A stretch of 64,000 nt of DNA from Candidatus Spongiihabitans sp. GTDB taxonomy: Bacteria > Pseudomonadota > Gammaproteobacteria > Arenicellales > Poriferihabitantaceae. The stretch is from positions 657,831-721,830 of the forward strand of contig NZ_OZ250154.1 of NCBI RefSeq assembly GCF_965237845.1. Reading direction: 5' to 3'. This document shows positions 2,069 through 46,986 of the stretch, piece after piece. The number at the start of each line of letters is the position of its first letter. Positions within the stretch are counted from its first letter, which is position 1. The notes under the pieces were generated by a model. It was not told the origin of the DNA and ran no database searches. It worked only from the letters and a program-made list of their open reading frames with translations. The position numbers and the translations under genes are program-made.

Positions 2069-3949
2069 ATGAAATACCCGGAATCTTTTGAGGTCATTGT
2101 CATCGGCGGCGGTCACGCCGGTGTAGAAGCCGCGCTGGCCTCAGCGCGGATGCGGTGCAATACTTTGTTGATTACCCATAACATTGAAACCATAGGGCAA
2201 ATGTCCTGTAACCCGGCCATCGGCGGAATCGGCAAGGGTCATATCGTCAAAGAAATTGATGCCCTGGGCGGCATCATGGCAAGCGCAATAGATGAGGCCG
2301 GCATCCACTTCAGGATATTGAATTCCCGCAAGGGGCCAGCGGTTCAGGCCACTCGGGCGCAGGCCGACCGGGCGTTATATAAAATGGCCATTCGCAAGGC
2401 CGTGGAACATCAGCAAAATTTAACCGTGTTTCAACAATCGGTGGATGATTTGATCGTAGCAGGGGCGCAAATAAAGGGCGTGCGAACTCAACTGGGCATC
2501 GAATTTGAATCGTCTGCTGTGGTCTTGACTACCGGGACTTTTCTAAATGGAAAAATCCATGTCGGGATGGACAATTCAAAAGGCGGCCGGGCGGGAGATT
2601 CGTCTTCGTTAGCCCTGGCCAATCGCTTGCGAGAGTTGCCCCTGAATGTTGACCGACTTAAAACCGGAACACCCCCGCGTATAGATGGCAAAACAATCGA
2701 CTATACTTATCTGGATAAACAGCCTGGTGACGACCCGGTTCCGGTATTTTCGTTTCTTGGGGATGTTGCTCAACATCCGCGCCAGGTTTCCTGTCATATC
2801 ACGCACACCAATACCAAAACCCATGACATTATAACCAACGCCTTGCATCGCTCGCCGCTCTATGGCGGTGCCATTGAAGGCGTGGGCCCGCGTTATTGTC
2901 CTTCAATCGAAGACAAGGTGGTGCGATTTGCTGATCAAAACAGCCATCAAATCTTTATCGAACCCGAGGGTCTGAACACCACCGAGGTCTATCCCAATGG
3001 CATTTCAACCAGCTTGCCGTTTGATGTTCAGCTTGATTTCGTAAGATCTATAAAGGGATTCGAAAACGCAATGGTAACCCGACCCGGCTATGCCATTGAG
3101 TATGACTTTTTTGATCCACGAGGATTAAAAAGCTCATTGGAAACCAAATGTATTCACGGGTTGTTTTTCGCAGGGCAAATCAATGGCACCACAGGCTATG
3201 AGGAAGCTGCCGGGCAGGGGTTAATTGCCGGATTAAACGCGGCTTTGAAAATCAAGCAACGTGAACCCTGGTGTCCAGCTCGAAGCGAAGCGTATATCGG
3301 TGTCATGATCGATGACCTGATTACCCGCGGCACAGCCGAACCTTACAGGATGTTCACCTCCCGCGCCGAATATCGGTTGCAACTGCGGGAGGACAATGCG
3401 GATTTAAGGTTGACCGACAAAGGCTATGAGCTTGGGCTTGTCGATGACCGGCGAATTTCGGCGTTCAACAAAAAACGCGACAACATCGATAAAGAAAAAA
3501 CCCGATTGGAGAAAACCTGGGTTCGTCCGGATAACACAGATGCGGCGACGATTGAAAAAATACTGGGCCAACCCTTGCAAAGAGAGGCCAATTTGATGGA
3601 TTTGTTGCGACGACCGGAAGTGAATTATCAAGGCCTGGTCGAGTTAGCCCGGCTTGATGCGCCGTTGCAGGATCAACAAAGTATTCGGCAACTCGAAATA
3701 CAAGCCAGATACAGCGGCTACATTGAACGTCAGGCTGCGGAAATCGAACGCCAGAAGAACAGCGATAACCTGGCGATACCGGACGATATCGACTATGCAA
3801 ATGCGCACGGACTGTCCGCCGAGGCGCAACAAAAACTAAGTGCCACCCGACCTCAAACAATTGGACAAGCAGCCCGAATTCCAGGGGTAACGCCGGCTGC
3901 CATATCGTTGCTATTGGTGCATCTTAAAAAAACGCAAAGAGCGGCATAG
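2069..3949 (+). CDS. mnmG: tRNA uridine 5-carboxymethylaminomethyl modification enzyme MnmG (GidA)
   Basis: [31 protein letters not shown]-binding N-terminus and full-length (~627 aa) GidA-like sequence. ATG at 2069 is chosen over the upstream in-frame ORF start at 1964, which overlaps the previous gene. Confidence 0.95.
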
Positions 3950-3960
3950 CGCTCGCGCCT

Positions 3961-5604
3961 TTGCGAAAGCCGGTTATCCTCGAAATGCACCAAGCCGGCG
4001 ATCAATTTGATTTCATCGTGGTCGGCGCCGGCTCGGCCGGTTGTGTGCTGGCAAACCGCCTGAGCGAAATACCCGACCAGCGCATCTTGCTGCTGGAGGC
4101 CGGAACCCGGGACACCAGCCCCTGGCTCCACATTCCGGTGGGGTATTTCAAGACCATGCACGACCCCCGCTTTGACTGGTGTTATGTTACCGAGCCGGAC
4201 CCCGGCTTGAACGGCCGCCGGATAAAATGGCCCCGGGGCAAGGTGCTGGGCGGCTCGAGTTCCCTGAACGGCCTCCTGTATGTGCGCGGGCAGGCCGAGG
4301 ATTATGATGGCTGGGCGGCGGCGGGCAACCCAGGATGGTCGTTTCACGACGTGCTTCCCTTTTTCAAAAAATCCGAGGATCAGGAACGGGGAGAAGACGA
4401 ATTCCACGGCGTCGGCGGCCCCCAGAAGGTGTCCGATATCCGCATCCGCCGAAAAATTACCGATGCCTTTATCGCCGCCGCGGTGCAGGCCGGCGTCCCT
4501 CCGAACAACGATGTCAACGGCGACGTTCAGGAAGGCGTCGGTTATTTTCAGTTGACCAGCGATCGCGGCAGACGTTGCAGCACCGCGGTGGGCTACCTGC
4601 GCCCGGCGTTGAAGCGCGCGAATTTGACGGTCAAAACTAACGCGCATGTTACCCGTTTGGTGACCGAAAACGGTCGAGTCAGCGGGGTCGAGTATCTCCA
4701 TCAGGGGCAAATCAGAATGGCCGGCGCGGCGTGCGAAACGATCTTGTCTGCCGGGGCGATTGGCTCGCCACAAATTCTTCAGCTGTCCGGCATCGGCGCC
4801 GGCGAACTGAGCCAGCGGCTGGAGATTCCAGCACTTTTGCAATTGCCGGGGGTGGGCGCTAATCTGCAGGATCATCTGCAAATTAGGGCGGTGTACAAAT
4901 GCCGACAGGCCACCCTGAATGACGAAATCAACAGCTCGTTTGGCAAGTTGCTGATGGGGCTGGAATATCTGTTGCGCCGCAGCGGGCCGATGGCCATGGC
5001 GGCCAGCCAAGTGGCTATATTCACCCGCTCCAATGCCGCTGTGGCGCGGCCGGATATTCAGTTCCACTTTCAACCGCTGAGTTCGGATAGCCCCGGCCAA
5101 GGCACCCATCGGTTTTCTGCGTTCACCTCGTCGGTTTGTCAACTGCGACCATCCAGCAGTGGCAATGTGCAGATCAAGTCCCCGGATCCTGAGCAATATC
5201 CTGCATTGCAACCCAACTACCTCTGCACCGAGCTTGACTGCCAGGTTGTTATCGCTGGCATGAAACTATCGCGGAAAATCGCTGGCATGCCCGCGCTCAA
5301 AGACCTCATCACCGAAGAATACGATCCGGGGATTCACATCCGCTCCGATGAAGAGTTGCTGGAACATGCGCGTCATACCGCCACCACGATTTATCACCCG
5401 GTCGGCACCTGCAAAATGGGCACTGCCTCAGACCCCATGGCGGTGGTGGACAGCCAGCTAACCGTACATGGAATAGACCGTCTGCGGGTAGCGGATGCAT
5501 CCATCATGCCCGCCATCACCTCTGGCAACACCAACGCACCGACGATTATGATCGGTGAGAAATGCGCGGCGATGATCAAGCAACATTGGCGACTCAAAAG
5601 CTGA
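3961..5604 (+). CDS. GMC-family FAD oxidoreductase (choline/alcohol dehydrogenase-like)
   Basis: [21 protein letters not shown] Rossmann motif, C-terminal HPVGTCKMG and [22 protein letters not shown] motifs. TTG at 3961 or ATG at 3985 are both possible starts. GC-rich. Confidence 0.85.
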
Positions 5605-5778
5605 ATATATCGGTCAATTCAGCCGTTTCCCAAATGGTATCCTCGGCGTAAAACGGGTTGCCCTGCATGCTGAAATTGCGCCGAGCCAGCCGAACGCTTG
5701 GAGCTTTCGTTGTCGAATGATTGCGGCTGGATACTCGCCAACCCAAACGACCGCCTCTGTGGTGTCTTTTGCTCCAAC

Positions 5779-6522
5779 TTATTCAAGGTCGGTCAAGTAG
5801 TGATAATGAGCGGTATTGCATCGGCTGACCCGCCATTCAAGCGGGATGTTTTCATAGCCGATGGCAACCCGGTCAATTTCAAGCAATGGCCGGCCACATT
5901 CGATACCCAAATGTTTGGCATCATTTTCATCGGCAACAACCGCTTTTAGTTTTTCGGTGGCGTTGATGACCGCTAGGTGAAACAGGGACTCATAATACCG
6001 ATAGAGGGTGTTCGGCAACTCGGCCGGCGCGTGATTTTCCAGACCGCTGAAACGGTTGGCGGGCAGCGACAGGCATTCATGAATGACCGGGTCGCTGTCG
6101 AGCATCCGAATCCGGGTGATACGAATAACCTGTCCGCCTTTGTCAAGGCACAATTTGTCGCGCTCCTGAATAGTAGAGCGGTTTTTCGACAGAGATACCA
6201 CTCTGCTGTCCGGTAATAAGCGGTGACCGTTGTCATTGGTAAGGCGGAGAAAATGAAACAGGGCGCGGTCAACCGTGTGGGTTGCCACATAGGTTCCCTT
6301 ACCCTGATGCCGAACCAACAGGTTCTGGCCGACAAGTTCATCCAATGCCTTTTTGATTGTTCCCTGGCTGACTCCGAGCATCTCCGCTTGGCGCGGTTCG
6401 CTGGGTAGCAGGTCACCCGGTTTGAATTCATTTTTTGCCAACCGCTGCAGTATTATATCCTTGACCTGTAAGTATAACGGGCGGAAGTTCGGGCTGGTGA
6501 ACGGTTTTGTGCTGTGCTCCAC
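5779..6522 (-). CDS. GntR-family transcriptional regulator (HutC/FarR-type with UTRA effector domain)
   Basis: N-terminal winged HTH (PLYLQVKDIILQRLAKNEFKPGDLLPSEPRQAEMLGVSQGTIKKALDELVGQNLLVRHQGKGTYV) plus a ~150-aa C-terminal domain typical of UTRA. Divergent from the SAF/UxaA pair. Confidence 0.85.
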   Translation of the reverse strand: MEHSTKPFTSPNFRPLYLQVKDIILQRLAKNEFKPGDLLPSEPRQAEMLGVSQGTIKKALDELVGQNLLVRHQGKGTYVATHTVDRALFHFLRLTNDNGHRLLPDSRVVSLSKNRSTIQERDKLCLDKGGQVIRITRIRMLDSDPVIHECLSLPANRFSGLENHAPAELPNTLYRYYESLFHLAVINATEKLKAVVADENDAKHLGIECGRPLLEIDRVAIGYENIPLEWRVSRCNTAHYHYLTDLE

Positions 6523-6572
6523 TGATAATCCTGATTTTGTGCTTTACATTAATAGAACAGGTTGCTACCTTT

Positions 6573-6602
6573 ATACCATCTTAATACCATCTTATATAAG
6601 AT
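6573..6602. promoter_or_regulatory. Candidate operator in the divergent GntR / suyA-like intergenic region
   Basis: Direct repeat ataccatctta at 6573-6583 and 6584-6594, overlapping a perfect 14-bp palindrome atcttatataagat (6589-6602). Located 28 bp upstream of the 6630 start codon. Confidence 0.35.
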
Positions 6603-6629
6603 ACAAGTATTTTAATCAACGAGGAATGC

Positions 6630-6926
6630 ATGACTATAGCAAATCCGCCGGATTTTCTGGTTCACGACCAACGCGATGATGTCGGTGTTGTGGTGGTCGA
6701 AGAAGTCGAAACCCGGCAGCGTCTTTGTAGCTGGTGCATGGAAACCGATAAAATCGTTGCCGTTACCGCCACGCAGCCGATTCCTCTGGGGCACAAAATT
6801 GCTTTAAAAGAGATTGCCGAAGGTGACGATGTGATCAAGTATGGCGAAGTAATTGGCCGCGCCAGCACGGACATTACGGTGGGTGCTCACCTGCACGTCC
6901 ACAATACTAAAACAAGAAAGTGGTAA
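6630..6926 (+). CDS. SAF-domain small subunit of a UxaA-family (altronate-dehydratase-like) enzyme; SuyA-like (sulfolactate sulfo-lyase small subunit architecture)
   Basis: 98 aa. [42 protein letters not shown] matches the SAF/UxaA N-terminal signature. Encoded as a separate small ORF directly upstream of the large-subunit ORF. Confidence 0.7.
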
Positions 6927-6939
6927 CCTGAGACCGAGC

Positions 6940-7659
6940 ATGAACACGCCGAATATTTTTGGTTTCAAGCGCGAAAACGGCCGCGTCGGGATACGCAATC
7001 ACGTGGTTATCCTGCCGCTGGACGATCTTTCCAACGCCGCTTGCAAGGCGGTTGCCAACAATATCCGGGGCGCCTTGGCGATTCCCCATGCCTACGGCAG
7101 GCTGCAATTCGGCGAGGACCTCGAACTGCATTTTCGCACCCTGATTAGCACCGGTGCGAACCCCAATGTGGCGGCGGTGGTGGTCATCGGCATCGAACCC
7201 GAATGGCCCCGGGTGATCGTCGACGGCATCGGCAAAACCGGTAAACTGGTGACTGGTTTTTCCATCGAACGCTATGGCGATATCAACACCATCGCCGAAG
7301 CCAGCCGCACGGCCAAGGAATATGTACATATCGCCTCGGAATACCAGCGCGAGGAATGCCCACTTTCAGATGTCTGGGTGTCGCATAAGTGCGGCGACGC
7401 CCTGCTGGACATGGTAATCCGAACCTGCAACGGCCGCCTGACCGCGGCGGAGGCCCTGGGTCACCGGGAATTTGTGCTCACGAAGTTGTATCGCAAGTGC
7501 ATAATTGGGGCGGTTTTGTGTTATAAGCCAGTACATAACCACGGCCCAAAAATGAGGCAAATCAAATGGCGGGGAAAACAAAACACGGTGCGAAGCGAAT
7601 TTCCACCAAAACAAACCACTGGGATAACTTCTTGCGTGGTGTCGCCAACGTGCTGGTAA
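6940..7659 (+). pseudogene. UxaA-family large subunit (SuyB-like) with a large internal deletion and a replaced 3' end
   Basis: The N-terminal ~150 aa are UxaA-like ([31 protein letters not shown]...[13 protein letters not shown]). They join directly, at about 7396-7404, to a C-terminal-type segment ([31 protein letters not shown]). The central ~200 codons expected for this family are absent. Family similarity stops near 7494, although the frame stays open to 7659. Confidence 0.6.
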
Positions 7660-7793
7660 TTGCTCCCCGACGGGAATACCACATCCCGAAAAGAGGCGAT
7701 TTTGCGCGGGATGCGCACTCGTTGCGAGAGGATTTTGACAAGGTTGCCGGTGACCTGAACTATTCAGTGAATAGGTATGGCGCGGGGCAGTAA
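7566..7793 (+). CDS. Hypothetical small basic protein (75 aa)
   Basis: ORF with GAGG 8 nt upstream of the ATG. No family recognised. Lies in a patch of lower GC that replaces the 3' end of the SuyB-like gene. Confidence 0.3.
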
Positions 7794-7824
7794 AACCCAC
7801 ATCAAGGGGCGCGGAGGTGAGATT

Positions 7825-8121
7825 ATGTACCAGCAACACGATACGGACAGCCCCATCATCCCGGTTTCACAACTCGAGAAGTTGCGCACATTCAAGCCGG
7901 ATGCCGCGGATTGGGTGTTACAACAAACCGAGGTTGAGGCAAATCATCGTCGCAGTGAAGAACATCGCGTTAATTCTTTTATTTTTTCCGAAAGGTTTTT
8001 CGGGCAAATTTGCGCCCTGACAATCGGCCTCGTCGGCATTGGCGGTGGCGCTTTCGTGGCATGGGGAGGACAACCTTGGGCCGCCGTATTTATTCAAGGG
8101 AATAGGAAAAAGCAACCCTGA
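7825..8121 (+). CDS. DUF2335-like small membrane protein
   Basis: IIPVSQLEKLRTFKPDAADWVLQQTEVEANHRRSEEHR followed by hydrophobic segments (FFGQICALTIGLVGIGGGAFVAW) matches the DUF2335 pattern as I recall it. GGAGGTGA lies 7 nt upstream of the ATG at 7825. Confidence 0.5.
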   Translation: MYQQHDTDSPIIPVSQLEKLRTFKPDAADWVLQQTEVEANHRRSEEHRVNSFIFSERFFGQICALTIGLVGIGGGAFVAWGGQPWAAVFIQGNRKKQP

Positions 8122-8222
8122 TAAACCAAAATACCCATGGTCCTGTCATGGGGCAACCTGTTTATTTTTCGTGCACTCGCTCCCCGGAGCAATTACCAAC
8201 TACCAACAAATAGGAGACTGAG

Positions 8223-9335
8223 ATGTTAAAACGTTCCAACTTGTTTGCCGGCGGAATGGCCGGCCTGTCCATGCTGGCCACGCTTTTATCGACCGCGGGC
8301 GCGGCTTTCGCGGAAGTTACGATTCGCGTGCAGTCGGTGTTGCCGACCAAGGCGGATGAAATCGTCATGGTCAAGGATTTCGCCGCCAACGTGGCGGCGC
8401 TGACCAACGGCGAAATCAAGATTGAGGTGCTGCCCGACGGCGCCATCGTCAGCGGCCGCGACATTCTCGACGCCGTCGACAAGGGCTTGGTGGAAGCCGG
8501 CTTCGCGTGGACGCATTACTGGTCGGGCAAGCATCCCGCCGCCATGCTGTTCGGCTCGCCGGTCGCCGGCGCCGGAGTCGGCATCGACAACATCGCCTTC
8601 ATTTCGTGGTATATGAACGGCGGCGGACGCGAGCTTTACGATCAACTGTGGGATGAGATGGGCTTGAACATCAAGGGCTTGATGCTGCAGCCGGTGGGAC
8701 CGGAGGCGCTGGGCTGGTTCAAGGAGCCGATTGAGAGCATGGAGGATTTCCGCCAATACCGTTTCAGGACGCCGCCGGGCATCCCCGGGCAAACCTACAA
8801 CGACATTGGCGTCGCTTCGGTGGCCATGAGCGGCGGCGACATTCTGCCAGCATTGGAAAAAGGCGTGATCGACGCCGCCGAGTGGTGCTGCCCGAAGCCC
8901 GACAGCGTGTTCGGCTTCCAGAAAGTGCTCAAGCACTATTATCTGCAAGGCCTCCACCAAGTGGTGGTGAACGCCGACATGTATATCAACAAAGATGTCT
9001 GGAACAAGTTGACCGACCACCAGAAAAAGGCGATGGAAGTGGCGGCGGATGCCTCGCTGATTCGCTCCTTGAGTTATCGCATTTTTGAAAACGGCAAAGC
9101 CCTCAAGGACTTGGTCGAAAATTGGGGCGTTATCCTGCACGATACGCCAGAGGATTACTTCCCCCTATATATGAATGCGGCCAAGGCCAGCCTCGAGAAA
9201 AACTCGAAGGAAAACGCGTTTTTCAAGCAGGTCTGGGATTCGCAAAAAGCCTTCGCCGAGATCGCGGTGCCGTTCTGGGCCGGGGCGCAGACTTCCAACG
9301 CTAAACTGGGCAAGGCGTTTGTGGATGGGAAGTAG
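8223..9335 (+). CDS. TRAP transporter substrate-binding protein (DctP-type; HpsK-like position)
   Basis: 370 aa with signal peptide (MLKRSNLFAGGMAGLSMLATLLSTAGAAFA). Sequence style is that of the mannitol/chloroaromatic-type TRAP periplasmic components. Followed by small and large TRAP permeases. Confidence 0.8.
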   Translation: MLKRSNLFAGGMAGLSMLATLLSTAGAAFAEVTIRVQSVLPTKADEIVMVKDFAANVAALTNGEIKIEVLPDGAIVSGRDILDAVDKGLVEAGFAWTHYWSGKHPAAMLFGSPVAGAGVGIDNIAFISWYMNGGGRELYDQLWDEMGLNIKGLMLQPVGPEALGWFKEPIESMEDFRQYRFRTPPGIPGQTYNDIGVASVAMSGGDILPALEKGVIDAAEWCCPKPDSVFGFQKVLKHYYLQGLHQVVVNADMYINKDVWNKLTDHQKKAMEVAADASLIRSLSYRIFENGKALKDLVENWGVILHDTPEDYFPLYMNAAKASLEKNSKENAFFKQVWDSQKAFAEIAVPFWAGAQTSNAKLGKAFVDGK

Positions 9336-9422
9336 TCAATAGATGAGTCGCGAAAAAATCAACGGCAAGCCCGTTGATTTTTTCACCCCGCTAGCGAAAG
9401 CCACCTCAATCTACGCAAAACC

Positions 9423-10037
9423 ATGGTCGAAGAAATCGACCCCAGCAAACTCGAGATCGCCGATGAGCTAATCGCCGAGCGGCGCGGCACCGCGCCGGGC
9501 AAACTCCCCGACGACATGCCTCGGTGGATGGCCGCCACCATCACCCGCATCGACCTGATGAGTTTGTGGATCGGCCGCGCGGTGTGCTGGATGCTGGTGC
9601 CGTTGTGCGTGTCCATGGTGTATGAGGTCATCGCGCGCAAGTATTTCCTCGCCCCGACCATGTGGGCCTACGACATCAGCCGGATGTTTTACGGCGCGCT
9701 GTTCATGCTCGGCGCCGGCTACGCGCTTTCTCGGGGGGTGCATATCCGAGCCGATTTCCTGTATCGCAACTGGTCGGTGCGGGTTCAAGGCACGGTCGAT
9801 TCGACGCTGTATCTGGTGTTTTATTTCCCCGGCTTGCTGGTGTTCATGTGGACTTCCATCGATTACGCCTGGGTCGCCATCGACCGCGGCGAGCGCGGCA
9901 TGGACACGGCGTGGATGCCCTATATGGGGCCGATCAAATCGGTGTTGCCGGTCGGAGCGTTGTTGTTGTTAATCCAAGGCATCTCGGAAACCTTGAAAAG
10001 CCTCTACGCGGCACGCCGCGGAAGGTGGCCGGTATGA
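9423..10037 (+). CDS. TRAP transporter small permease (DctQ-type; HpsL-like position)
   Basis: 204 aa, four hydrophobic helices. The stop overlaps the large-permease start (ATGA at 10034-10037). Confidence 0.8.
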   Translation: MVEEIDPSKLEIADELIAERRGTAPGKLPDDMPRWMAATITRIDLMSLWIGRAVCWMLVPLCVSMVYEVIARKYFLAPTMWAYDISRMFYGALFMLGAGYALSRGVHIRADFLYRNWSVRVQGTVDSTLYLVFYFPGLLVFMWTSIDYAWVAIDRGERGMDTAWMPYMGPIKSVLPVGALLLLIQGISETLKSLYAARRGRWPV

Positions 10038-11374
10038 TTGACTACGTGATCAACCTGCCGCCGGAGTTCATCGGCGTCATCATGATCGCGGTGATGCTGT
10101 TCGCGATTTTCATCGGTTTCCCGATCTCCTTCACCCTCATCTTCCTGGGCATGTCGTTCGGCCTGTGGGGCTTCGGGCAACTGGTGTTTTACCTGATGAC
10201 CTTCCAGTTCTCCGGCGTGATGCTGGAGCAAACCCTGGCAGCGGTGCCGTTGTTCATCTTCATGGGCATTTTGATGGAGCAAGCCGGGCTGATGGAAAGA
10301 TTGTTCAACGCCGTGCTGCTGACCTTATCAAGGCTGAAGGGCGCGCTGTATGTCGCCGTTCTGCTGGTGTCCACCGTGTTCGCCGCCGCCACCGGCATCG
10401 TCGGCGCCTCGGTCACCATCCTCGGCATCATGGCCGCCAAGACCATGAACAAATCCGGCTACGACACTAAATTGGCGGCCGGCACCATCACCGCCGGCGG
10501 CACCCTCGGCATCCTCATTCCGCCGAGCATCATGCTGGTGGTCATGGGGCCGATCCTAGAAGTGCCGGTCACCGACCTGTTCGCGGCGGCGATCATCCCC
10601 GGATTCCTGCTCGCCTTCATGTATACCCTGTATGCTCTGCTGCGCTGCCAACTCAACCCCAGCCTCGGCCCGGCACTGCCCGAAGAGATGCGGCCGAAGT
10701 CGATGGCGTATGTGTGGAAGGAATTCTTTTTCGGGCTGGTTCCGCCGGCGGCGCTGGTCGGCTTCGCCCTCGGCAGCATCCTGCTGGGGTTCGCCACCCC
10801 CACCGAAGCCGCCGGCATGGGCGCGTTCGGCGCCTTCCTGCTGGCCGCCGCCTATCGCAAACTGACCTGGACCGGCTTCAAGGACGCGCTCATCAAGACC
10901 CTGGAAATCTCGGCGTTGATCCTGATACTGGTGGCCGCCTCGAATTTCTTCGGCGCGGTGTTCGCGCGGCTCGGCACGCCGACCATGCTGACCAATTACC
11001 TGCTGACGCTGGACATGCCGCCGTATGCCATTCTGCTGATGATCATGGCACTGATATTCGTCCTCGGCTGGCCGTTGGAATGGGTGCCCATCGTGCTCAT
11101 CATCATCCCCATCCTGCTGCCGGTGGTCGAGCAACTCGGCTTCAACCTGGTGTGGTTCGGCATCCTGGTGGCGGTCAACCTGCAAACCGCGTGGCTATCG
11201 CCGCCGGTGGCGCTGTCGGCGTATTTCCTCAAGGGCGTGGTCCCGGAATGGGACCTGAAGGACATTTACGCCGGCATGATGCAGTTCATGGGCATTCAGA
11301 TCGTCGGCTTGTTGTTGATCATATTGTTCCCGCAAATCGCATTATGGCTGCCGACGTATTTGTACGGGCAGTGA
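10034..11374 (+). CDS. TRAP transporter large permease (DctM-type; HpsM-like position)
   Basis: 446 aa from ATG 10034 (MIDYVINLPPEFIGVIMIAVMLFAIFIGFPISFTLIFLGM...). Polytopic, typical DctM sequence. The upstream part of ORF 9662-11374 overlaps dctQ and is discarded. Confidence 0.85.
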   Translation: MIDYVINLPPEFIGVIMIAVMLFAIFIGFPISFTLIFLGMSFGLWGFGQLVFYLMTFQFSGVMLEQTLAAVPLFIFMGILMEQAGLMERLFNAVLLTLSRLKGALYVAVLLVSTVFAAATGIVGASVTILGIMAAKTMNKSGYDTKLAAGTITAGGTLGILIPPSIMLVVMGPILEVPVTDLFAAAIIPGFLLAFMYTLYALLRCQLNPSLGPALPEEMRPKSMAYVWKEFFFGLVPPAALVGFALGSILLGFATPTEAAGMGAFGAFLLAAAYRKLTWTGFKDALIKTLEISALILILVAASNFFGAVFARLGTPTMLTNYLLTLDMPPYAILLMIMALIFVLGWPLEWVPIVLIIIPILLPVVEQLGFNLVWFGILVAVNLQTAWLSPPVALSAYFLKGVVPEWDLKDIYAGMMQFMGIQIVGLLLIILFPQIALWLPTYLYGQ

Positions 11375-12052
11375 TGAAGATATTCCTCGACGTAGGCGGT
11401 CATTTGGGAGAGACGCTTGACGAAGTATTGAAGCCGAATTATCGCTTCGACATCATTCACTGCTTTGAGCCAAGTGGAATGCTACGAGATGCTCAAAAAT
11501 AAATATCAGGATTGGGTCGAACTGCACAATTTCGGCTTGGCTGACTTCGACGACATGCGGGATTTATACGGCGAAGGAATGGGGGCGAGCCTTTTCGCTG
11601 ATAAACAGGATATTGATGACAGCCAGCGCGCAAAGTGTCGGTTTGTTCGGGCAAGTTCGTTCATAAAAGAGCATGTCAAGCAAGACGATTTGGCGGTGAT
11701 GAAACTAAACTGCGAAGGCGGCGAAGTTCTGATTTTGCGCGATTTGATTCAAGGGGGCATCCATTTGCTATCGAACTTGATGGTTGACTTTGACATCTGC
11801 AAAATACCTTCGCAACGCTCGGAGGAAGCGAGAATAAAAGCCGAATTAAGCACTGCCGGATTCACCAATTATGTTACGCCAAGGCAAATGATGGTGGGCA
11901 GGACCCATCAAGCCAGGATTGGCTTTTGGTTGTCTAATCTGCCTAATGCAGATGAATTCATGGAATTGACGCCGATGCAGAAAGTCATGCGCCGTCTACC
12001 CATGTCAATCAGGCGCCTTATTCAAAGAAACCGAAGAAAACCGCGCAAGTAA
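11374..12052 (+). pseudogene. FkbM-family SAM methyltransferase-like gene split by an apparent 1-nt frameshift near 11472-11474
   Basis: Frame 1 from ATG 11374 (overlapping the dctM stop, TGATG) gives MKIFLDVGGHLGETLDEVLKPNYRFDIIHCFEPS and then stops at 11502. The family continues in the next frame (VECYEMLKNKYQ...AVMKLNCEGGEVLILRDL). Noticeably lower GC than flanking genes. Confidence 0.45.
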
Positions 12053-12149
12053 TCACATCGTGGAGCCAGATTTCGACAGCCTCGGCGCCGCGGTTGTGGC
12101 GGTATGAAAGTTGTGAACTCTGTATAATGCCGCCAACGAAGCCAACGCC

Positions 12150-13451
12150 ATGACCATCCAGCATATCAAACGCGCGCAAAACACCCCCGTCACTGGCGAG
12201 GACGACACGCGCAAACTCGTACAGGACATGCTGCGCGAAATAGAACAAGGCGGCGAAGCGCGCGTCAAAGAATACGCCCGCGAACTGGACGGCTGGGAGC
12301 AGGACATCGTCGTCAGCCGCGAGCAAATCAACGCGGCGGGCGCGTCGTTGAGCGCGCAAACGCGGGAGGACATCGAGTTTTCTCACGCCCGCGTCAAGCG
12401 CTTCGCCGAGGCGCAACTCGCGAGCATGGGCGAATTTGAAACCGAATTGTCCCCCGGCCTGTTCGCCGGCCAGCGCTTGATCGCGGTGAACACCGCCGGG
12501 TGCTACGTGCCCGGCGGGCGTTATGCCCACATCGCCTCGGCCATCATGAGCATCACCACCGCAAAGGTCGCCGGGGTCAGACACATCGTCGCCTGCTCCC
12601 CCGCCCACAAAGACCGCGGCGTCCATCCGGCGATTTTGTACGCCGCCGACCTCGCCGGTGCCGACACCATCCTCGCCCTGGGTGGCGTGCAGGGCGTCGC
12701 CGCCATGGCCTTTGGGCATTTCACCGGACATGCGGCGGACATTCTCGTCGGCCCCGGAAACCGCTTCGTCGCCGAAGCCAAGCGCATTTTATATGGCCGC
12801 GTCGGCATTGATTTATTCGCCGGCCCGACTGAAATTCTCGTGGTTGCCGACCATTCCGCCGACCCCGAACTGGTCGCCTCGGACCTCGTCGGTCAGGCCG
12901 AACACGGGCCGGATTCACCGGCCTGGTTGGTCACCACTTCGGCGGCGCTGGCGAAAAAAGTCATGGAACTTATGCCCGCCTATATTGAACGACTGCCGCA
13001 GCCCAACCGCTCGACAACCGAAACTTCATGGCGGGATTACGGCGAGGTGGTGGTGGTCGAGAGCGCCGAGGAAGCTGTGCGGGTCAGCAATGAATACGCG
13101 CCGGAGCATCTGGAAGTGCACTGTGAAAACCTCGACTGGTGGTTGCGGCATTTAAGCAACTACGGCTCGCTGTTCCTCGGCGAGGAAACCACGGTCGCCT
13201 ATGGCGACAAGTGCTCGGGCACCAACCACATCCTGCCCACCAAAGGCGCGGCGCGCTACACCGGCGGACTCAGCGTCGGCAAGTTCATCAAGGTGCTGAC
13301 CTGGCAACGCATGACCGAGGGAGCCAATCGCGAAGTCGGTGCGGTAACCGCCAGAATATCCCGCGCCGAAGGTATGCACGGCCACGCCCTCACCGGCGAC
13401 GACCGGCTGGCCAAGTACTTCCCCGGCGAAAAGTTTGATCTTGGGCATTAA
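12150..13451 (+). CDS. Histidinol-dehydrogenase-family NAD dehydrogenase (HisD paralog; HpsN-like, candidate sulfopropanediol 3-dehydrogenase)
   Basis: 433 aa with HisD-family motifs (LALGGVQGVAAMAFG, GPGNRFVAEAKR, DLVGQAEHGPDS, CSGTNHILPT). No other his genes nearby. Sits between a TRAP system and an SDR/Zn-ADH pair. Confidence 0.7.
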   Translation: MTIQHIKRAQNTPVTGEDDTRKLVQDMLREIEQGGEARVKEYARELDGWEQDIVVSREQINAAGASLSAQTREDIEFSHARVKRFAEAQLASMGEFETELSPGLFAGQRLIAVNTAGCYVPGGRYAHIASAIMSITTAKVAGVRHIVACSPAHKDRGVHPAILYAADLAGADTILALGGVQGVAAMAFGHFTGHAADILVGPGNRFVAEAKRILYGRVGIDLFAGPTEILVVADHSADPELVASDLVGQAEHGPDSPAWLVTTSAALAKKVMELMPAYIERLPQPNRSTTETSWRDYGEVVVVESAEEAVRVSNEYAPEHLEVHCENLDWWLRHLSNYGSLFLGEETTVAYGDKCSGTNHILPTKGAARYTGGLSVGKFIKVLTWQRMTEGANREVGAVTARISRAEGMHGHALTGDDRLAKYFPGEKFDLGH

Positions 13452-13510
13452 CCCGCCGCCCGGCCGTGCGCTGACTTCATCCGCCTTGCTCTGACAAGCC
13501 CGCCTTCGGT

Positions 13511-14293
13511 ATGCCCGCGCTCGACATTCAATCACAATTCGGCCTCGACGGGCGGGTAATGGTCATCGCCGGCGCAAGCAGCGGCATTGGCCGCGCCATG
13601 GCGGGGTTCCTCGCCGCCGCCGGGGCATCGGTGGTGCTGGTGGCGCGGCGCGAAGCGGAACTGCAGGACGCCGCCAAAGAAATTCACGCCAGCGGCACCG
13701 GTGGAAACGCCTCGGTGGTGGCGGCCGACCTCACCGACTTTGCCAGCGTCGCCGACACCGCGCATCGGTGCGAGCGGGCGTTTGGCAAGGTGGACGGCGT
13801 GATTAATGCGATGGGCATCAACCTGCGCCAGCCGGTGGACGAAGTAACCGTGGCGGACTGGAATCAAACCCTGCACCTTAACCTGTCGGCGCCGTTTTTT
13901 TTCAGCCGGGAATTTGTCAAAGGCATGAAACAACGCCGCTACGGCCGAATCATCAACATCGCCTCGTTGCAATCCGTGCGCGCCGATGTTAACGGCCTCG
14001 CCTACGGCGCCGCCAAAGGCGGGGTGCGTCAACTCACGCGCGCCATGGCCGAAGCCTGGTCGCGGCACCATATCACCTGCAACGCCATCGCCCCGGGGGT
14101 CTTTCCGACCCGGTTGACCCGGGTGATTTTCGACGACCCGGAAAAAGCCGCCGAGAAAGCCGCGCGCACCGCCATCGGGCGCAACGGCGAAATGGCCGAC
14201 CTGTTCGGCGCCACGATTTTTTTCGCCTCCCCGGCCAGCGGTTACATCACCGGCCAGACGTTGTTCGTTGATGGCGGCTATACCGCGAAGTAA
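13511..14293 (+). CDS. Short-chain dehydrogenase/reductase (HpsO-like position)
   Basis: VMVIAGASSGIGRAMAGFLAAAGASVVLVAR cofactor motif and catalytic YGAAKGG (YxxxK). Confidence 0.85.
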   Translation: MPALDIQSQFGLDGRVMVIAGASSGIGRAMAGFLAAAGASVVLVARREAELQDAAKEIHASGTGGNASVVAADLTDFASVADTAHRCERAFGKVDGVINAMGINLRQPVDEVTVADWNQTLHLNLSAPFFFSREFVKGMKQRRYGRIINIASLQSVRADVNGLAYGAAKGGVRQLTRAMAEAWSRHHITCNAIAPGVFPTRLTRVIFDDPEKAAEKAARTAIGRNGEMADLFGATIFFASPASGYITGQTLFVDGGYTAK

Positions 14294-14390
14294 TGGCCCC
14301 GGAAAATCAAAAGACCAAACTGGCGTGGTTTGACTGGCTGCCGGACTGCGCGGCTGTGGAGTTAGGCGTGGTTAAGTGTATAGTTGCCCC

Positions 14391-15395
14391 ATGAAAGCCC
14401 TGGTTTACACCGCCAACGAGGAAATGACCTACCGGGATGAGCCGCCGCCCCGCCCTGGCCCCGGCGACGCGCTCATCGCCATCGATTCGGTTGGCATCTG
14501 CGGCTCGGACATGCACGCCTATCTTGGTCATGATGCGCGCCGCACTCCCCCATTGATATTGGGTCACGAAGCGGTTGGCACGGTCATGCAGGGGCCGCAA
14601 TCCGGTCAAAAAGTCTTGCTCAACCCGTTGATCACCTGTGGCAAATGCCGCGACTGCCTTGGCGGCCGACAAAACCTGTGCGCGCAACGGGACTTGATCG
14701 GCATGGTGCGCCCCGGCGCGTTTGCCGAACAAATCGCCATTCCGGAGCGCAACTTGATCCCGTTGCCGCCGGGCATGGACGCGCACAAAGCCGCGCTGAC
14801 CGAGCCCGCCGCAACCGCGCTACACGCGGTCGCCCTCGCGGAAAAATCCTTGGCAAGGTCGATAAGCGAAACCCGCGCGTTGGTCATCGGCGGCGGCTCG
14901 GTGGGTTTGTTGTGCGCGTTGATTCTACAAGACAAGGGCGTCGGCGAAGTCCACCTCGCCGAGACCAACGCGCTACGGCGGGATGCGGTGCGCGACCGCG
15001 GCGGCTGGCGGGGCGATGGCTTGCGCGTCTTCGACCCGCTGGCCGACCGACCCGCTGCCGCCGTATTCGATGTCGTCTTCGACGCCGTCGGCGGTGCAAC
15101 CACCCGCACCACCAGCGTCCAATGCATCCGTCCCGGCGGGGTGATCGTGCACATCGGCTTGCTCAACGCCGAAGGGGAACTCGATGTGCGCGCCATGACG
15201 CTACAGGAAATTACCTTCATCGGCAGCTACACCTATACCCCGAACGATTTACGCATCGCCCTCGGCAAGCTCCACAGCGGCGCATTGGGCGAGCTTGGTT
15301 GGTTGGAGCAACGACCGCTGGCAAACGGCGCGCGCGCCTTCAAAAATCTGTTGCAAGGCAAATGCCCGGCGCCGAAAATTATCCTTAAAATATAA
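14391..15395 (+). CDS. Zinc-dependent medium-chain alcohol dehydrogenase (HpsP-like position)
   Basis: MKALVY..., GICGSDMHAYLGHD, GHEAVGTV, structural-zinc CGKCRDCLGGRQNLC and GGGSVGLL NAD motif. ATG at 14391 preferred over ORF start 14376. Confidence 0.85.
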   Translation: MKALVYTANEEMTYRDEPPPRPGPGDALIAIDSVGICGSDMHAYLGHDARRTPPLILGHEAVGTVMQGPQSGQKVLLNPLITCGKCRDCLGGRQNLCAQRDLIGMVRPGAFAEQIAIPERNLIPLPPGMDAHKAALTEPAATALHAVALAEKSLARSISETRALVIGGGSVGLLCALILQDKGVGEVHLAETNALRRDAVRDRGGWRGDGLRVFDPLADRPAAAVFDVVFDAVGGATTRTTSVQCIRPGGVIVHIGLLNAEGELDVRAMTLQEITFIGSYTYTPNDLRIALGKLHSGALGELGWLEQRPLANGARAFKNLLQGKCPAPKIILKI

Positions 15396-15439: not shown

Positions 15440-16789
15440 TTACCTTAACGTCACCAACTCTTCGGCAGCAGTCGGATGAATCGCCACCGTATTGTCAAAA
15501 TCCTGTTTGGTTGCACCCATTTTAACCGCTACGGCAAAGCCCTGTATCATTTCATCGGCGCCGCGACCGACAACATGACAGCCGACCACGCGCTGGTCCG
15601 CGCCGTGGACGATGAGTTTTACCAGTGTGCGCGGTTTGTGTTCGGTGACAGCGTAGTGTATGTCGATGAAAAAATTCTTGTATATTTTAATTTCATTCTC
15701 ACCATATTTTGCCCGTGCCTCGGCTTCCGACAAACCCACGCTGCCGACCGGCGGATGGGAGAAAATAACCGTCGGGATATTCTCGTAGTCGAGTCTTGCA
15801 TCAGTCTGATTATCGAATAATCGGTCGGCAAGTTTTCGACCGGCGGCGATGGCAACCGGGGTGAGTTGGGCTCTGTGAGTAACATCGCCCACCGCATAGA
15901 TGCCCTTCGCCGAGCTGTTTTGAAACTCATCGGTCTGTATACGCCCGCGCGCATCCACTTCAACGCCGGCAACTTCCAGATTTAGACTGGCAATGTTAGT
16001 GTGTCGTCCAATCGCCCAGATGATGCAATCAAATTCATCCGTGCCATTGCCTTCATTATCACGATACCCCAGAGAATCGTTTCCTTTTACCAGCGATTGC
16101 AACGCTATTTTGGTCATTATCTCAATACCGCTTTGCTGCATTTGCGCCATAACCATCTCATGCACATCGTGATCAAAAGTCCTGAGCAGTTTGTCCTTGC
16201 GTAATAGCATGGAAACTTCGCTGCCCAGCCCATGCATCAAGCCGGCCAATTCGGTGGCGATGTAACCAGCGCCAATGACCAGAATTTTTTTCGGCTGATG
16301 TGCCAGTTTAAAGAAACCATCGCTGGTAATCCCGAGTTCGGCGCCGGGCATATTCGGCACGCTGGGCGCTCCCCCGGTGGCGATAAGGATATGGTCTGCA
16401 TGGCATTCATCGCTATTCACCACAATGCCATTGCCAGAGCTAAATCTGGCTTTTCCGCGAATGAGCGATACCCCGGAGTCATCAAGATTGCGTCCATAAA
16501 TATCATTTAATCGGGACACATAAGCGTCTCTTGCTTGCTTGATCGTCTGCCAGTCAAACCCCAGTCGATCGATGCGAAAGCCGTAATCTTTCGCTGACTC
16601 CAGAGTTTCATTTATTTGGGAGGTTGTCCACATTACTTTCTTCGGCACACAACCCACATTGACACATGTTCCCCCCAGAGGGCCGGATTCGATCAGCAGG
16701 ACTTTCGCGCCATATTGTGCGGCGCGCCGGGCAGATGCGATACCTCCGCTTCCGCCGCCAATGACGATAAAATCAAACCTCTCAGACAT
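15440..16789 (-). CDS. gor: Glutathione-disulfide reductase
   Basis: [20 protein letters not shown], redox-active [14 protein letters not shown]-terminal [12 protein letters not shown]. 449 aa. Confidence 0.9.
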
Positions 16790-17778: not shown

Positions 17779-18396
17779 ATGTATGCAGTAATCGAAACGG
17801 GCGGCAAACAATATAAAGTTGCTATTGGTGATAAGTTAAAAGTGGAAAAACTAGCCGTTGCGGAGGGTGATTCGGTCAGTCTGGGTCGCGTGTTGATGAT
17901 AGCAGACGGTGACAAAGTCACCGTTGGATCGCCAGTGCTTGAAAGCCCGGTCATCGCGACAGTGGTATCCCATGGCCGGGCCGGGAAAATCAAGGTTTTC
18001 AAAATGAAACGACGTAAAAACTATCGTCGTACTCAGGGACATCGCCAATCATTCACAGAGATCGAAATTACGGGTATTGGTGGCGCAGGTGGTGCTGGGC
18101 TTTCTCGCGCATCAACTTCTGAAAAGAAAACGACCGCTGTCAAGACCGCCGCCGAGAACACCAAGACGGCAGGCAATAAAACCACGACGGGCGACAATAT
18201 GGGCGATGACCTAACCCGGATAAAGGGTATTGGTTCAGTGATCGAGAAAAAATTGCTCGCCATGAAGATAACCACGTTTAAGCAAATTGCTGAATTTGAT
18301 CAAGCCAAAATTGACCAGATTAATGAACAACTGAGTTTGAAAGGCAGGATTGAGCGGGAAAAGTGGGTTCAACAAGCGAATAAACTGGCAATTTAG
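17779..18396 (+). CDS. rplU: 50S ribosomal protein L21 with a ~100-aa C-terminal extension
   Basis: [14 protein letters not shown]...[23 protein letters not shown] is a complete L21 (~101 aa). It continues in frame through a G/A/T/K-rich linker into [31 protein letters not shown]...[17 protein letters not shown]. Confidence 0.9.
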
Positions 18397-44257: not shown

Positions 44258-45232
44258 ATGAACCGAGCTCAATACGGCGCAATCACGGAAGGCGCGGAAC
44301 GAGAAATAGGATTTTATCTCTCCGATAATTTCAGTATGCTGCCATTCATATCTGCGGTGGAGCCTTTACGCATAGCCAATCGCATGTCGCGCAAACCGCT
44401 GTATCAGTGGTCTATCGTCACTGAAAATGGAGACAGTGTTTTCGCAACCAATGGGATGGAATTAGCCGCAAAATATGCCGTTAAGAATGCACCGGATTTT
44501 TCCATGATCTTTGTAAACGGCCCCCATGAACCTAAAAATTTCAATCACCGACCGACGCTCAATTGGTTAGCAGGGCAGAGTAAGCGCGGCATTGTTATTG
44601 GGGGAATTGAAACGGGTTGCCACATTCTCGCTGAATCGGGTCTTCTGGATGGTATTCAATGCACTACCCATTGGGAAAACCAGGTCGAGTTTGTTGAAGC
44701 TTTTCCAAAACATAAAGTTTCATCCGATGTCTATGAGATCGACGGCAACCGAGTGACCTGTTCCGGGGGAGCGGTTTCCATGGATATGATGCTCTATATC
44801 ATTGAGCAACATCATGGTCACGAATTAGCCGCCTCGGTGGCGGATGTGATGATTCATCCAAATATTTGCCACCCCGGCGAACCACAGCGAATGAATGTTC
44901 AGGCGCGCACCGGCGTAAGCCATCCAGCGTTGCTGGAGTGTATTGAGCTGATGGAAGCCAATATAGAACAACCGCTATCGCCTAACGAATTAGCGCGTTT
45001 GGTCGAGATATCCAAACGCCAGTTGGAAAGATTGTTCCGCCGCTATTTGAATACCACCCCGGCGCGCTACTATCTGAATATGCGGCTGGATGCCGCTCGA
45101 AAAATGTTGGAGACAAGCGCTATGAAAATTATTGATGTCACGGTAGCTTGCGGGTTTAAATCTGCTGGACATTTCAGCAGCCGCTCTTATTCCAGCTATG
45201 GCGTTACCCCGCGAGATTCACGTAAAATCTGA
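44258..45232 (+). CDS. GlxA-family (DJ-1/PfpI + AraC HTH) transcriptional regulator
   Basis: N-terminal amidotransferase-like domain (IGFYLSDNFSMLPFISAVEPLRIAN) and C-terminal AraC HTH (LSPNELARLVEISKRQLERLFRRYLNTTPARYYLNMRLDAARKML...ACGFKSAGHFS). Confidence 0.85.
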   Translation: MNRAQYGAITEGAEREIGFYLSDNFSMLPFISAVEPLRIANRMSRKPLYQWSIVTENGDSVFATNGMELAAKYAVKNAPDFSMIFVNGPHEPKNFNHRPTLNWLAGQSKRGIVIGGIETGCHILAESGLLDGIQCTTHWENQVEFVEAFPKHKVSSDVYEIDGNRVTCSGGAVSMDMMLYIIEQHHGHELAASVADVMIHPNICHPGEPQRMNVQARTGVSHPALLECIELMEANIEQPLSPNELARLVEISKRQLERLFRRYLNTTPARYYLNMRLDAARKMLETSAMKIIDVTVACGFKSAGHFSSRSYSSYGVTPRDSRKI

Positions 45233-45375
45233 TAATTGATTGGAATGCCTGAAATTTTAACGGACGCAGAAATTGAAATTCGAGTCGTTAAATATTACAT
45301 GATTGAAATCGGTTTCAATGATACTCAGCGTTCTTTTTAAACATTAAACTAACATTAAAACTTAGGCTCAAACTT

Positions 45376-46953: not shown

Positions 46954-46986
46954 AGAACAAGTAGTCATAATAAAGAGGCATTAATC

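Follow-up and report, generated by a model that had tools for sequence, protein, structure and literature searches.

The window analysed here is a 64-kb stretch of the 2.74-Mb chromosome of Candidatus Spongiihabitans, a genus of sponge-associated, sulfur-oxidising bacteria (Gammaproteobacteria, Arenicellales, Ca. Poriferihabitaceae). Between mnmG and gor it carries an 11.4-kb block (3961–15395) with the genes expected of a module for catabolism of 2,3-dihydroxypropane-1-sulfonate (DHPS), in which suyB, the gene for the large subunit of the sulfolactate sulfo-lyase, is broken by an internal deletion. We consider it likely, with a probability of about three in four, that the block is a DHPS module that was gained horizontally, has since been inherited vertically and is now eroding. 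There is nothing unusual in the pathway itself; the novelty lies in the host clade, in the suyB pseudogene and in a series of deletions in related genomes.

Family scans returned the genes of the block and their order as the initial annotation had listed them: a GMC-family oxidoreductase gene, a GntR/UTRA regulator gene on the opposite strand, suyA and suyB, three genes of a tripartite ATP-independent periplasmic (TRAP) transporter (dctPQM), and three dehydrogenase genes, namely hpsN, an hpsO-like gene from the short-chain dehydrogenase/reductase (SDR) family and an hpsP-like zinc-dependent alcohol dehydrogenase (ADH). All features are collected in Table 1; other loci are referred to by our own handles (L numbers).

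Dehydrogenases of the block

The product of hpsN, a paralogue of HisD, was compared with solved structures. It scored 569 bits against 8v35, the HpsN of Cupriavidus pinatubonensis, and 506 bits against 8wwe, entitled '(R)-DHPS dehydrogenase', while the best match to a true HisD (4g07) reached 251 bits. Identity to C. pinatubonensis HpsN (CpHpsN) was 58.6% over 430 aa. It is known that HpsN carries the motif G-R-Y-A/S-H, in which His126 binds the sulfonate, where HisD has G-S-A-P-L; in CpHpsN the zinc ligands are Gln248, His251, Asp352 and His411*, and the catalytic residues are Glu318 and His319 (PMC11382572). In the window protein we observed GRYAH at residues 123–127, in register with residues 122–126 of CpHpsN, and all six active-site residues are kept at an offset of +1 (Q249, H252, E319, H320, D353 and H412). 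With scores, motif and residues in agreement, the HisD paralogue is identified as a true HpsN, as the initial annotation had proposed.

The assignments of the other two dehydrogenases, taken earlier to be HpsO and HpsP, stand with different firmness. The SDR has its best match (258 bits) in 8wwf, (R)-DHPS dehydrogenase HpsO, followed by gluconate 5-dehydrogenase 6le3 at 244 bits; with 48.6% identity to C. pinatubonensis HpsO, we would call it HpsO-like by a thin margin. A non-orthologous SDR with 49% identity occupies the hpsO position in the related genome OZ252047. The ADH is 47.5% identical to C. pinatubonensis HpsP and scored 330 bits against 8wwd; the second-best structure reached 115 bits, a gap of 215 bits. 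The label of 8wwd reads only 'Zinc-containing alcohol dehydrogenase'; we take this entry to be D. shibae HpsP from the series 8wwd–8wwf and from PMC11131964, where a structure of DsHpsP is reported. From the same paper we inferred the organisms of the three entries (R. pomeroyi for 8wwf) and the assignment of 8wwe and 8wwd to HpsN and HpsP; 8wwf is itself labelled HpsO. If 8wwd is HpsP, the ADH of the window can be taken to be HpsP as well.

Of the three enzymes, HpsN converts R-DHPS to R-sulfolactate, and HpsO converts R-DHPS, and HpsP S-DHPS, to sulfolactaldehyde (PMC11131964). By analogy, the TRAP system of the window would import DHPS, its HpsN would perform the four-electron oxidation of R-DHPS to sulfolactate with formation of NADH, and its HpsO and HpsP would act on the R and S forms to give sulfolactaldehyde.

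The sulfo-lyase gene is a deletion pseudogene

The pair of SAF and UxaA-type genes had been read as the small and large subunits of SuyAB, with the large subunit at 6940–7494. The family of the latter was recognised correctly; a full-length partner it is not, as an in-frame deletion has left the gene at half length. Against the suyB genes of L001 and L004 it shows a single gap of exactly 606 bp (202 codons), bounded by copies of CGGCGA, a microhomology. What is left comprises the N-terminal domain (6940–7397), the junction (7392–7397), a C-terminal tail to ~7495 and a read-through to 7659, which the open reading frame (ORF) reaches because the native stop codon was lost. Pfam domain GD_AH_second is complete, GD_AH_C is represented by profile positions 206–240 of 242 only, and the product aligns to C. 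pinatubonensis SuyB (CpSuyB) at residues 10–158 and 331–389 only. By comparison, the 120 best-scoring homologues of intact L004 SuyB among the matches listed have 389–417 aa. The structure of suyB is the same in L002, a locus 99.35% identical to the window over 14.8 kb, so the deletion is not a local assembly error.

The origin of the gene pair can still be recognised. The N-terminal domain of the window protein shares 66% of its residues with CpSuyB. Intact SuyB from L004 is 61–75% identical to 13 plasmid-borne homologues, while 455 others are below 60%, those listed being at 37–39%; it is 65–66% identical to CpSuyB, encoded within hpsRNOUPsuyAB, and ~72% identical to SuyB of Paracoccus. Its homologues at 78–83% identity bear the JGI label '(2R)-sulfolactate sulfo-lyase subunit beta'. 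Judged by these identities (66% to CpSuyB against <60% to others), the SAF/UxaA pair is by descent a member of the SuyAB clade, as was thought, while the working lyase has to be given up: with ~202 residues gone, the pair is predicted to be nonfunctional in this genome.

Since suyB is a deletion pseudogene, a complete route from DHPS to pyruvate plus sulfite is impossible for this cluster, and the complete desulfonation pathway that the initial annotation implied was not borne out. No sulfite would be released via the block; the remaining genes would suffice, at best, for uptake of DHPS and its oxidation to sulfolactate, which would then have to leave the cell or be broken down by the products of genes beyond the 64 kb. 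Among ORFs of at least 230 aa at 21.5–60.5 kb, Pfam scans identified housekeeping genes, a set for glycine-betaine demethylation and a tripartite tricarboxylate (TTT) transporter, and no sulfite exporter, sulfite oxidase, xsc, comDE or cuyA; for these ORFs the earlier remark that neither sulfite exporter nor sulfite oxidase is visible in the window holds. A second SuyB of this chromosome was absent among the 120 best-scoring homologues listed, a weak test given that all of these are at least 77% identical to the L004 query.

The module in other loci and its GMC gene

Look-ups of HpsN and GMC homologues led to nine further loci. The long form of the module, GMC-GntR(-)-suyA-suyB-dctPQM-hpsN-SDR-ADH, is found in the window, in L004 and in L045 (Spongiihabitans OZ242212), where it is located between ispDF and a Hist_deacetyl remnant. 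In L005 and L043 other cargo takes the place of GntR, and L001 has the long form without GMC. A short form, (IclR)-GMC-dctPQM-hpsN-SDR, stands beside dnaK-grpE-erpA in L047 and L006/L007; no remnant of suyAB, hpsP or GntR was seen in these short-form loci. L003 carries a scar made of SuyA residues 3–18 and SuyB residues 359–395. The DctP of the window is 86–91% identical to its orthologues in all related hps loci.

The surroundings of the module have recurring neighbours of their own. Inverted Aminotran_3-BKACE-Hist_deacetyl trios flank the hps cluster of L001 (386–3731 and 13423–16746), and such a trio, together with an OpuAC ABC transporter, is located downstream of the module in L004–L007.

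Of nine distinct loci, eight have the GMC gene together with the module; it heads the module in L003–L007, L014, L045, L046 and L047. Several remoter GMC homologues (68–73% identity) are situated on the same contigs as HpsN homologues, and one homologue of 70% identity was found in an unrelated context (L040). The best PDB matches of the protein are generic GMC enzymes, and the source names of its homologues say only 'choline dehydrogenase'. A core of GMC, TRAP, HpsN and SDR genes is retained in lineages without suyAB (L003, L006/7, L047). The repeated loss of suyAB with the core kept suggests that the core has a use of its own.

One could speculate that the GMC flavoprotein is an undescribed hydroxy-sulfonate enzyme, e.g. 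a quinone-linked sulfolactate or DHPS dehydrogenase opening a SuyAB-independent route, and that loss of suyAB is adaptive. The compact IclR|GMC-dctPQM-hpsN-SDR operons without lyase among the GMC-bearing loci agree with this idea, which we nevertheless rate as unlikely, if not strongly so. Were it true, the symbionts would draw reducing power from the oxidation of DHPS of algal or host origin, and sulfolactate, or a product beyond it, would go to other members of the holobiont. No published link of hpsN with a GMC enzyme was found in the literature searched. In any case, a gene so conserved is a candidate for biochemical testing.

A separate arrangement was seen in L041 (94–10631, in a 5.18-Mb genome), where a set of GMC, TRAP (DctP and a fused DctQM) and IclR genes resembles the isethionate cluster. 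Beyond an IS240 transposase gene and a TerC gene there follow a 65% homologue of the window GMC and, directly after it, an Ldh_2 (ComC-like) gene. This arrangement hints at a link of the GMC subfamily of the window to sulfonate metabolism.

Loss and vertical descent at the mnmG-gor junction

An MnmG scan with one genome per species gave 31 loci, which we mapped with the window proteins. In L017, L018 and L038, from distant members of the family, and in L031, mnmG is followed directly by gor on the opposite strand; the outgroups L025 and L026 have an rsmG-parAB-like trio after mnmG. The mnmG-gor adjacency is thus the ancestral junction of the family. As the rsmG-parAB-like trio is kept only by the outgroups, mnmG-rsmG synteny was lost long before the block arrived, and the earlier statement that the block breaks this synteny is wrong for the family.

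In OZ252047, another Spongiihabitans species (MnmG 89%, Gor 91% identical), the order is mnmG-GMC-(7-kb insert)-suyA-suyB-dctP-orf-dctQM-hpsN-SDR-ADH-gor(-). Here suyB is intact (389 aa), and both junctions of the block are common to this genome and the window. The transfer predates the split of the two species; the module would have entered the mnmG-gor junction before that split and descended vertically afterwards.

A different state is found in L031, Ca. S. thiooxidans LS_SOB, the closest named relative (MnmG 95%): mnmG adjoins gor (92% identical to gor of the window) and the block is absent. The 109-bp spacer between the two genes, however, opens with the last 19 codons of hpsP and its stop (AFKKLLQGKCPAPKIILKI*), and 55 of 57 nt of this tail are identical to window positions 15336–15392. 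In the window the 7-bp direct repeat GCGCCTT is present close to the mnmG stop and again within the hpsP 3′-end. Since the LS_SOB spacer keeps the hpsP tail that comes after the repeat, LS_SOB has lost the whole block by a deletion that ends at GCGCCTT. Conservation of the block at this locus in all relatives had been named by the initial annotation as an argument against acquisition; the block is indeed present in relatives, at both junctions in OZ252047 and also in L046, and the one empty site, that of L031, has the hpsP remnant.

L046, of the same species as the window (98% identical), lacks window positions 6759–12183, from suyA codon 43 to a point shortly upstream of hpsN. Gone with this interval are dctPQM, what was left of suyB, and the insert that precedes hpsN. 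Four deletion states are then known: an internal deletion of suyB in the window, suyA to dctM in L046, the suyA'/'suyB scar in L003, and the whole block with a 57-nt tail left in LS_SOB. We count at least three independent losses of suyAB (this genome, L003 and L031); the larger deletion of L046 may be a separate event or the same one.

Comparison of the window with L046 gave a proportion of synonymous differences (pS) of 0.044 for the block and 0.050 for the backbone; because these are equal, the block is taken to be inherited vertically within the species. The ratio of nonsynonymous to synonymous proportions (pN/pS) is 0.17 for the block and 0.15 for the backbone, with 0.06 for hpsN and 0.05 for hpsP, values that indicate constraint on the dehydrogenases.

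The last figures bear on another possibility, in which the block in its entirety is a dead relic: now that the lyase is gone, its remaining genes would be drifting to loss and have no current function. Independent deletions in L046, L031 and L003 and the split ORF at 11375–12052 are what one would expect of a relic, and the low G+C content at third codon positions (GC3) of suyA and GntR, 0.53 and 0.60 in the window vs 0.80 for the L045 orthologues, could mean relaxed selection. Still, GMC, GntR, dctPQM, hpsN, hpsO and hpsP are all of full length, the pN/pS values of the block are close to those of the backbone and particularly low for two dehydrogenases, and the GMC-TRAP-HpsN-SDR core is kept where suyAB is lost or lacking. 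A relic is therefore a fairly improbable description of the block.

Composition and origin of the block

The abrupt change of composition reported earlier was confirmed by computation. G+C content of 3961–15395 is 0.581, against 0.484 +/- 0.006 (maximum 0.502) in non-overlapping windows of the same length elsewhere in the 64 kb, and the hand counts made on 60-nt lines (39/60, 46/60, 20/60 and 22/60) were exact. Mean GC3 of block ORFs is 0.73 vs 0.51 in 33 backbone ORFs (Mann-Whitney p = 1e-7, long ORFs). By gene, we have GMC 0.70, dctP 0.79, dctQ 0.82, dctM 0.87, hpsN 0.77, SDR 0.79 and ADH 0.76 in the block, and mnmG 0.53, gor 0.54, rplU 0.48, rpmA 0.39, obg 0.50 and proB 0.47 in the backbone. 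Two stretches inside the block, 7496–8211 (0.50) and 11375–12149 (0.48), have backbone-like G+C content. At its different site in OZ242212 the module has GC3 of 0.76–0.84, with flanks at 0.23–0.53; in OZ252047 its GC3 is 0.63–0.78. OY843749 ('Arenicellales bacterium', MnmG 72%, Gor 62%) has ~60% G+C throughout, and its short module sits in a context of matching composition.

Protein distances point the same way. Among four genomes the block proteins are nearly equidistant (GMC 77–81%, DctP 87–91%, DctM 88–93%, HpsN 81–85%), while backbone identities in the same genomes are hierarchical (MnmG 89 > 85 > 72; Gor 91 vs 62); the evidence for this discordance between genes and species is pairwise identity rather than a reconciled tree. 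Horizontal transfer is supported because the composition of the block differs and its protein distances do not follow the backbone. The source of the module was most likely a high-GC lineage, and the pattern fits a module that was exchanged between sponge symbionts of the Arenicellales at about the time of the early Spongiihabitans radiation, followed by vertical descent, translocation and decay. The transfer part of the earlier claim of acquisition from a high-GC donor thus stands; a recent or genome-specific event does not, as the block is shared with OZ252047 and LS_SOB keeps its scar.

Divergence at synonymous sites (dS) was tried as a clock for the transfer and dropped. Block pS was 0.30–0.55 against distant genomes whose backbone is saturated, and block GC3 of ~0.8–0.87 lowers the saturation level of pS to ~0.4–0.5.

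Several observations weigh against the reading of the block as a transferred, eroding DHPS module. No integrase or transposase ORF was found in 3961–15395, and its borders have neither an att site nor a tRNA, the closest tRNAs being those at 25.8 and 44.0 kb; there are no long flanking repeats, and the 7-bp direct repeat is the sole border repeat. With dS across genomes confounded by GC3 bias, the case for transfer rests on composition and protein distances. Among plasmid-borne TRAP binding proteins, none of the best matches exceeds 36% identity to the DctP of the window, and the preference of the SDR for HpsO over gluconate 5-dehydrogenase is small. Two of the contigs compared have low coverage (2x for L002, 5x for L046). 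Finally, an intact suyB paralogue, or a route through SlcD/ComDE/Xsc or CuyA, may exist elsewhere in the 2.74-Mb chromosome.

The lack of mobility genes and of a tRNA at the borders, along with vertical inheritance within the species, could also be explained if the block is native and owes its G+C content to expression-linked codon bias or to local mutation bias; to judge by the source names of homologues, free-living Arenicellales commonly carry hps and suy genes. High GC3 is not, however, an expression signature in this genome, because the ribosomal protein genes have the lowest GC3 of the window (0.39–0.48). Also, the module has high GC3 at each of three different chromosomal sites in the genus and is interrupted by low-GC inserts, and the distances of its proteins do not track those of the backbone. 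We regard a native origin as quite improbable.

A complete and working pathway of DHPS and sulfolactate desulfonation, recently acquired from a high-GC donor, would agree with the intact ORFs of the other genes and their strong matches to characterised enzymes, with the sharp compositional contrast and with absence of the block from the closest named relative. It is nonetheless very improbable: suyB is short of 202 codons of its catalytic domain, in which it departs from its 120 best homologues listed; the hpsP 3′ remnant makes the absence in LS_SOB a loss; OZ252047 has both junctions; and block and backbone pS are equal against L046.

Scarcely credible is a cluster acting on sugar acids or polyols rather than sulfonates (UxaA/GarD, a gluconate-5-dehydrogenase-like SDR, a threonine- or sorbitol-dehydrogenase-like ADH), as generic NCBIfam/Pfam family names and the near-equal SDR score to gluconate 5-dehydrogenase would allow, in view of a HisD paralogue that has the motif with the sulfonate-binding His and scores ~570 bits against solved HpsN, an ADH 215 bits nearer to 8wwd (taken as HpsP) than to any other structure, and a SuyB clade sharply apart from other UxaA proteins.

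Comparison with known systems

The hpsRNOUPsuyAB cluster of C. pinatubonensis JMP134 (L042) and the window both have hpsN, hpsO, hpsP, suyA and suyB, with SuyA at 47% identity and the HpsN motif and active-site residues identical. C. pinatubonensis HpsN was purified and crystallised (PDB 8v35–8v37, 9cp7–9cp9). The two clusters differ in the rest: C. pinatubonensis has an importer of the major facilitator superfamily (HpsU), a LacI-type regulator, an intact suyB, no GMC gene and another gene order, whereas the window has a TRAP importer, a GntR/UTRA regulator, a GMC gene and a broken suyB.

In Ruegeria pomeroyi DSS-3 the TRAP genes are followed by hpsN, hpsO and hpsP (SPO0591–0596; PMC4334477). 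The dctPQM-hpsN-SDR-ADH order of the window is the hpsKLM-hpsN-hpsO-hpsP order of R. pomeroyi, and the initial annotation, which quoted this order, was right about it. Differences are the LacI regulator of R. pomeroyi (hpsR-hpsKLM-N-O-P, SPO0590–0596), the adjoining slcD, the location of suyAB elsewhere and the absence of GMC. The cluster of the window combines the transporter and dehydrogenase order of R. pomeroyi with the SuyAB branch of C. pinatubonensis and D. shibae, to which GntR and GMC are added.

SuyAB, the (2R)-sulfolactate sulfo-lyase, was purified from Paracoccus pantotrophus, and its architecture of a split SAF small subunit and a UxaA-type large subunit is that of the window pair; unlike the Paracoccus enzyme, the large subunit of the window is without ~202 residues of the C-terminal domain. 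The enzyme is Fe2+-dependent (PMC11382572).

The order of genes in the window also invites comparison with isethionate catabolism. In the isethionate cluster a dehydrogenase gene, iseJ, stands beside the genes of a hydroxy-sulfonate TRAP importer, and IseJ, presumably, is a member of the GMC family. The genes are named iseJ-iseKLM-iseR (PMC4334477). An IclR regulator is common to this cluster and the short form of the module in L047, while the TRAP genes of the window are followed by hpsN and not, as in the ise cluster, by xsc.

DHPS is among the most abundant organosulfur currencies that marine bacteria receive from phytoplankton, and its catabolic genes have been studied mostly in roseobacters, SAR11 and the soil bacterium Cupriavidus. 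With the locus described here, a well-supported hps/suy module can be assigned to sulfur-oxidising bacteria that live in sponges (Arenicellales, Ca. Spongiihabitans); a published link of hpsN or DHPS with sponge symbionts was not found in the literature searched. The four deletion states make a natural series for the dismantling of a transferred catabolic operon in a host-associated lineage. The locus is also a warning for functional annotation: pipelines would call DHPS degradation complete (hpsN + suyAB) though the lyase is dead.

Features of the block, spacers and cargo

Table 1. Annotated features of the mnmG-gor interval (window coordinates)
Feature	Position	Strand	Evidence or remark
mnmG (left backbone flank)	2069..3949	+	GIDA Pfam domains on identical gene in L002; 95% identical to L031 MnmG
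Left copy of 7-bp direct repeat GCGCCTT	3955..3961		5 bp past mnmG stop; L031 deletion junction here
GMC-family FAD oxidoreductase ('choline dehydrogenase-like'), first module gene	3961..5604	+	NCBIfam PRK02106, 621 bits
GntR/UTRA (HutC-type) regulator	5779..6522	-	Divergent from suyA; same-position orthologues in L001, L004, L045, L046
suyA-like SAF small subunit, 98 aa	6630..6926	+	Pfam SAF; 47% identical to C. pinatubonensis SuyA
suyB pseudogene	6940..7659	+	Pfam coverage; 606-bp gap vs L001 and L004
Two small overlapping ORFs	7566-7793 (75 aa), 7777-8121 (114 aa)	+	Latter weakly DUF2335-like (E = 0.003)
TRAP solute-binding protein, hpsK position	8223..9335	+	Pfam DctP
TRAP small permease DctQ, hpsL position	9423..10037	+	Pfam DctQ
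TRAP large permease DctM, hpsM position	10034..11374	+	TIGR00786, 280 bits
Lower-GC insert with split ORF (~11375-11502, then 11465-12052)	11375..12149	+	GC 0.48
hpsN, (R)-DHPS 3-dehydrogenase (sulfopropanediol 3-dehydrogenase)	12150..13451	+	PDB scores, GRYAH motif, active-site residues
hpsO-like SDR	13511..14293	+	Best PDB match 8wwf (HpsO)
hpsP-like Zn-dependent alcohol dehydrogenase, last operon gene	14376..15395	+	Best PDB match 8wwd
Right copy of direct repeat GCGCCTT	15334..15340		Within hpsP 3′-end
gor, glutathione-disulfide reductase-like (right backbone flank)	15440..16789	-	Pyr_redox_2 + Pyr_redox_dim on identical gene

The mnmG ORF as listed begins at 1964, with M36 as its likely start, and ends with the stop TAG at 3947–3949; for the GMC gene, gene callers place the start at ~3985. 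Rfam gave no match inside the block. The lower-GC spacer with the 75-aa and 114-aa ORFs is common to the window and L004 and absent from L001. Pfam returned no family match for the split ORF of the 11375–12149 insert, in place of which a mere 43 bp is present in L001.

Small unrelated cargo accumulates in the intergenic gaps of the hps operon, which act as hotspots; this cargo varies from genome to genome and has G+C content below that of the operon. We saw it in the window (7496–8211 and 11375–12149), L004 (2871–3456 and 7357–10004), L006/L007 (4956–6966), L005 (872–4158) and L043 (1–3731); examples are N6_N4 and EcoRI methylases, GmrSD/HNH and DUF488 genes, NTP_transf_2 pairs and a 7-kb insert. 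A gene of an EamA-family transporter is present in L004 (9090–10004), directly upstream of hpsN, and in L045 (16637–17527); its GC3 of 0.82 is island-like, and the window is without it. The EamA protein is a candidate for a sulfonate or sulfite exporter in these two loci.

The 5′-end of hpsN differs between the window and L046: the first ~15 codons read MLLKKAANSPATDEDD in L046 (10097–10124) vs MTIQHIKRAQNTPVTGEDD in the window. Remodelling of this end of the gene has therefore taken place in one lineage or the other, probably coupled to the adjacent insert or deletion. Past the block, OZ252047 has cas4 and cas1 ~5 kb beyond gor (L043 20265–21305), and the window has no counterpart there.

Other features of the window

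The region 44258–49434 encodes an AraC/DJ-1-type regulator, an MttB-family methyltransferase (45376–46953) and an 815-aa DAO/GCV_T protein that is dimethylglycine-dehydrogenase-like; together these look like genes of glycine-betaine demethylation. An Rfam PYLIS_3 match (46444–46543) falls within the uninterrupted mttB ORF. As this ORF has no in-frame TAG, the match is probably a similarity of coding sequence and not a pyrrolysine insertion element.

A match to the Rfam Ruegeria cis8 small RNA at gathering level (67.7 bits) is located on the minus strand at 55578–55705, antisense within a TctA permease ORF (54528–56036, plus strand). The rplU ORF (17779–18396) codes for 205 aa, with the L21 domain in residues 1–100 and a C-terminal extension of ~100 aa that is rich in indels in comparison with L046.

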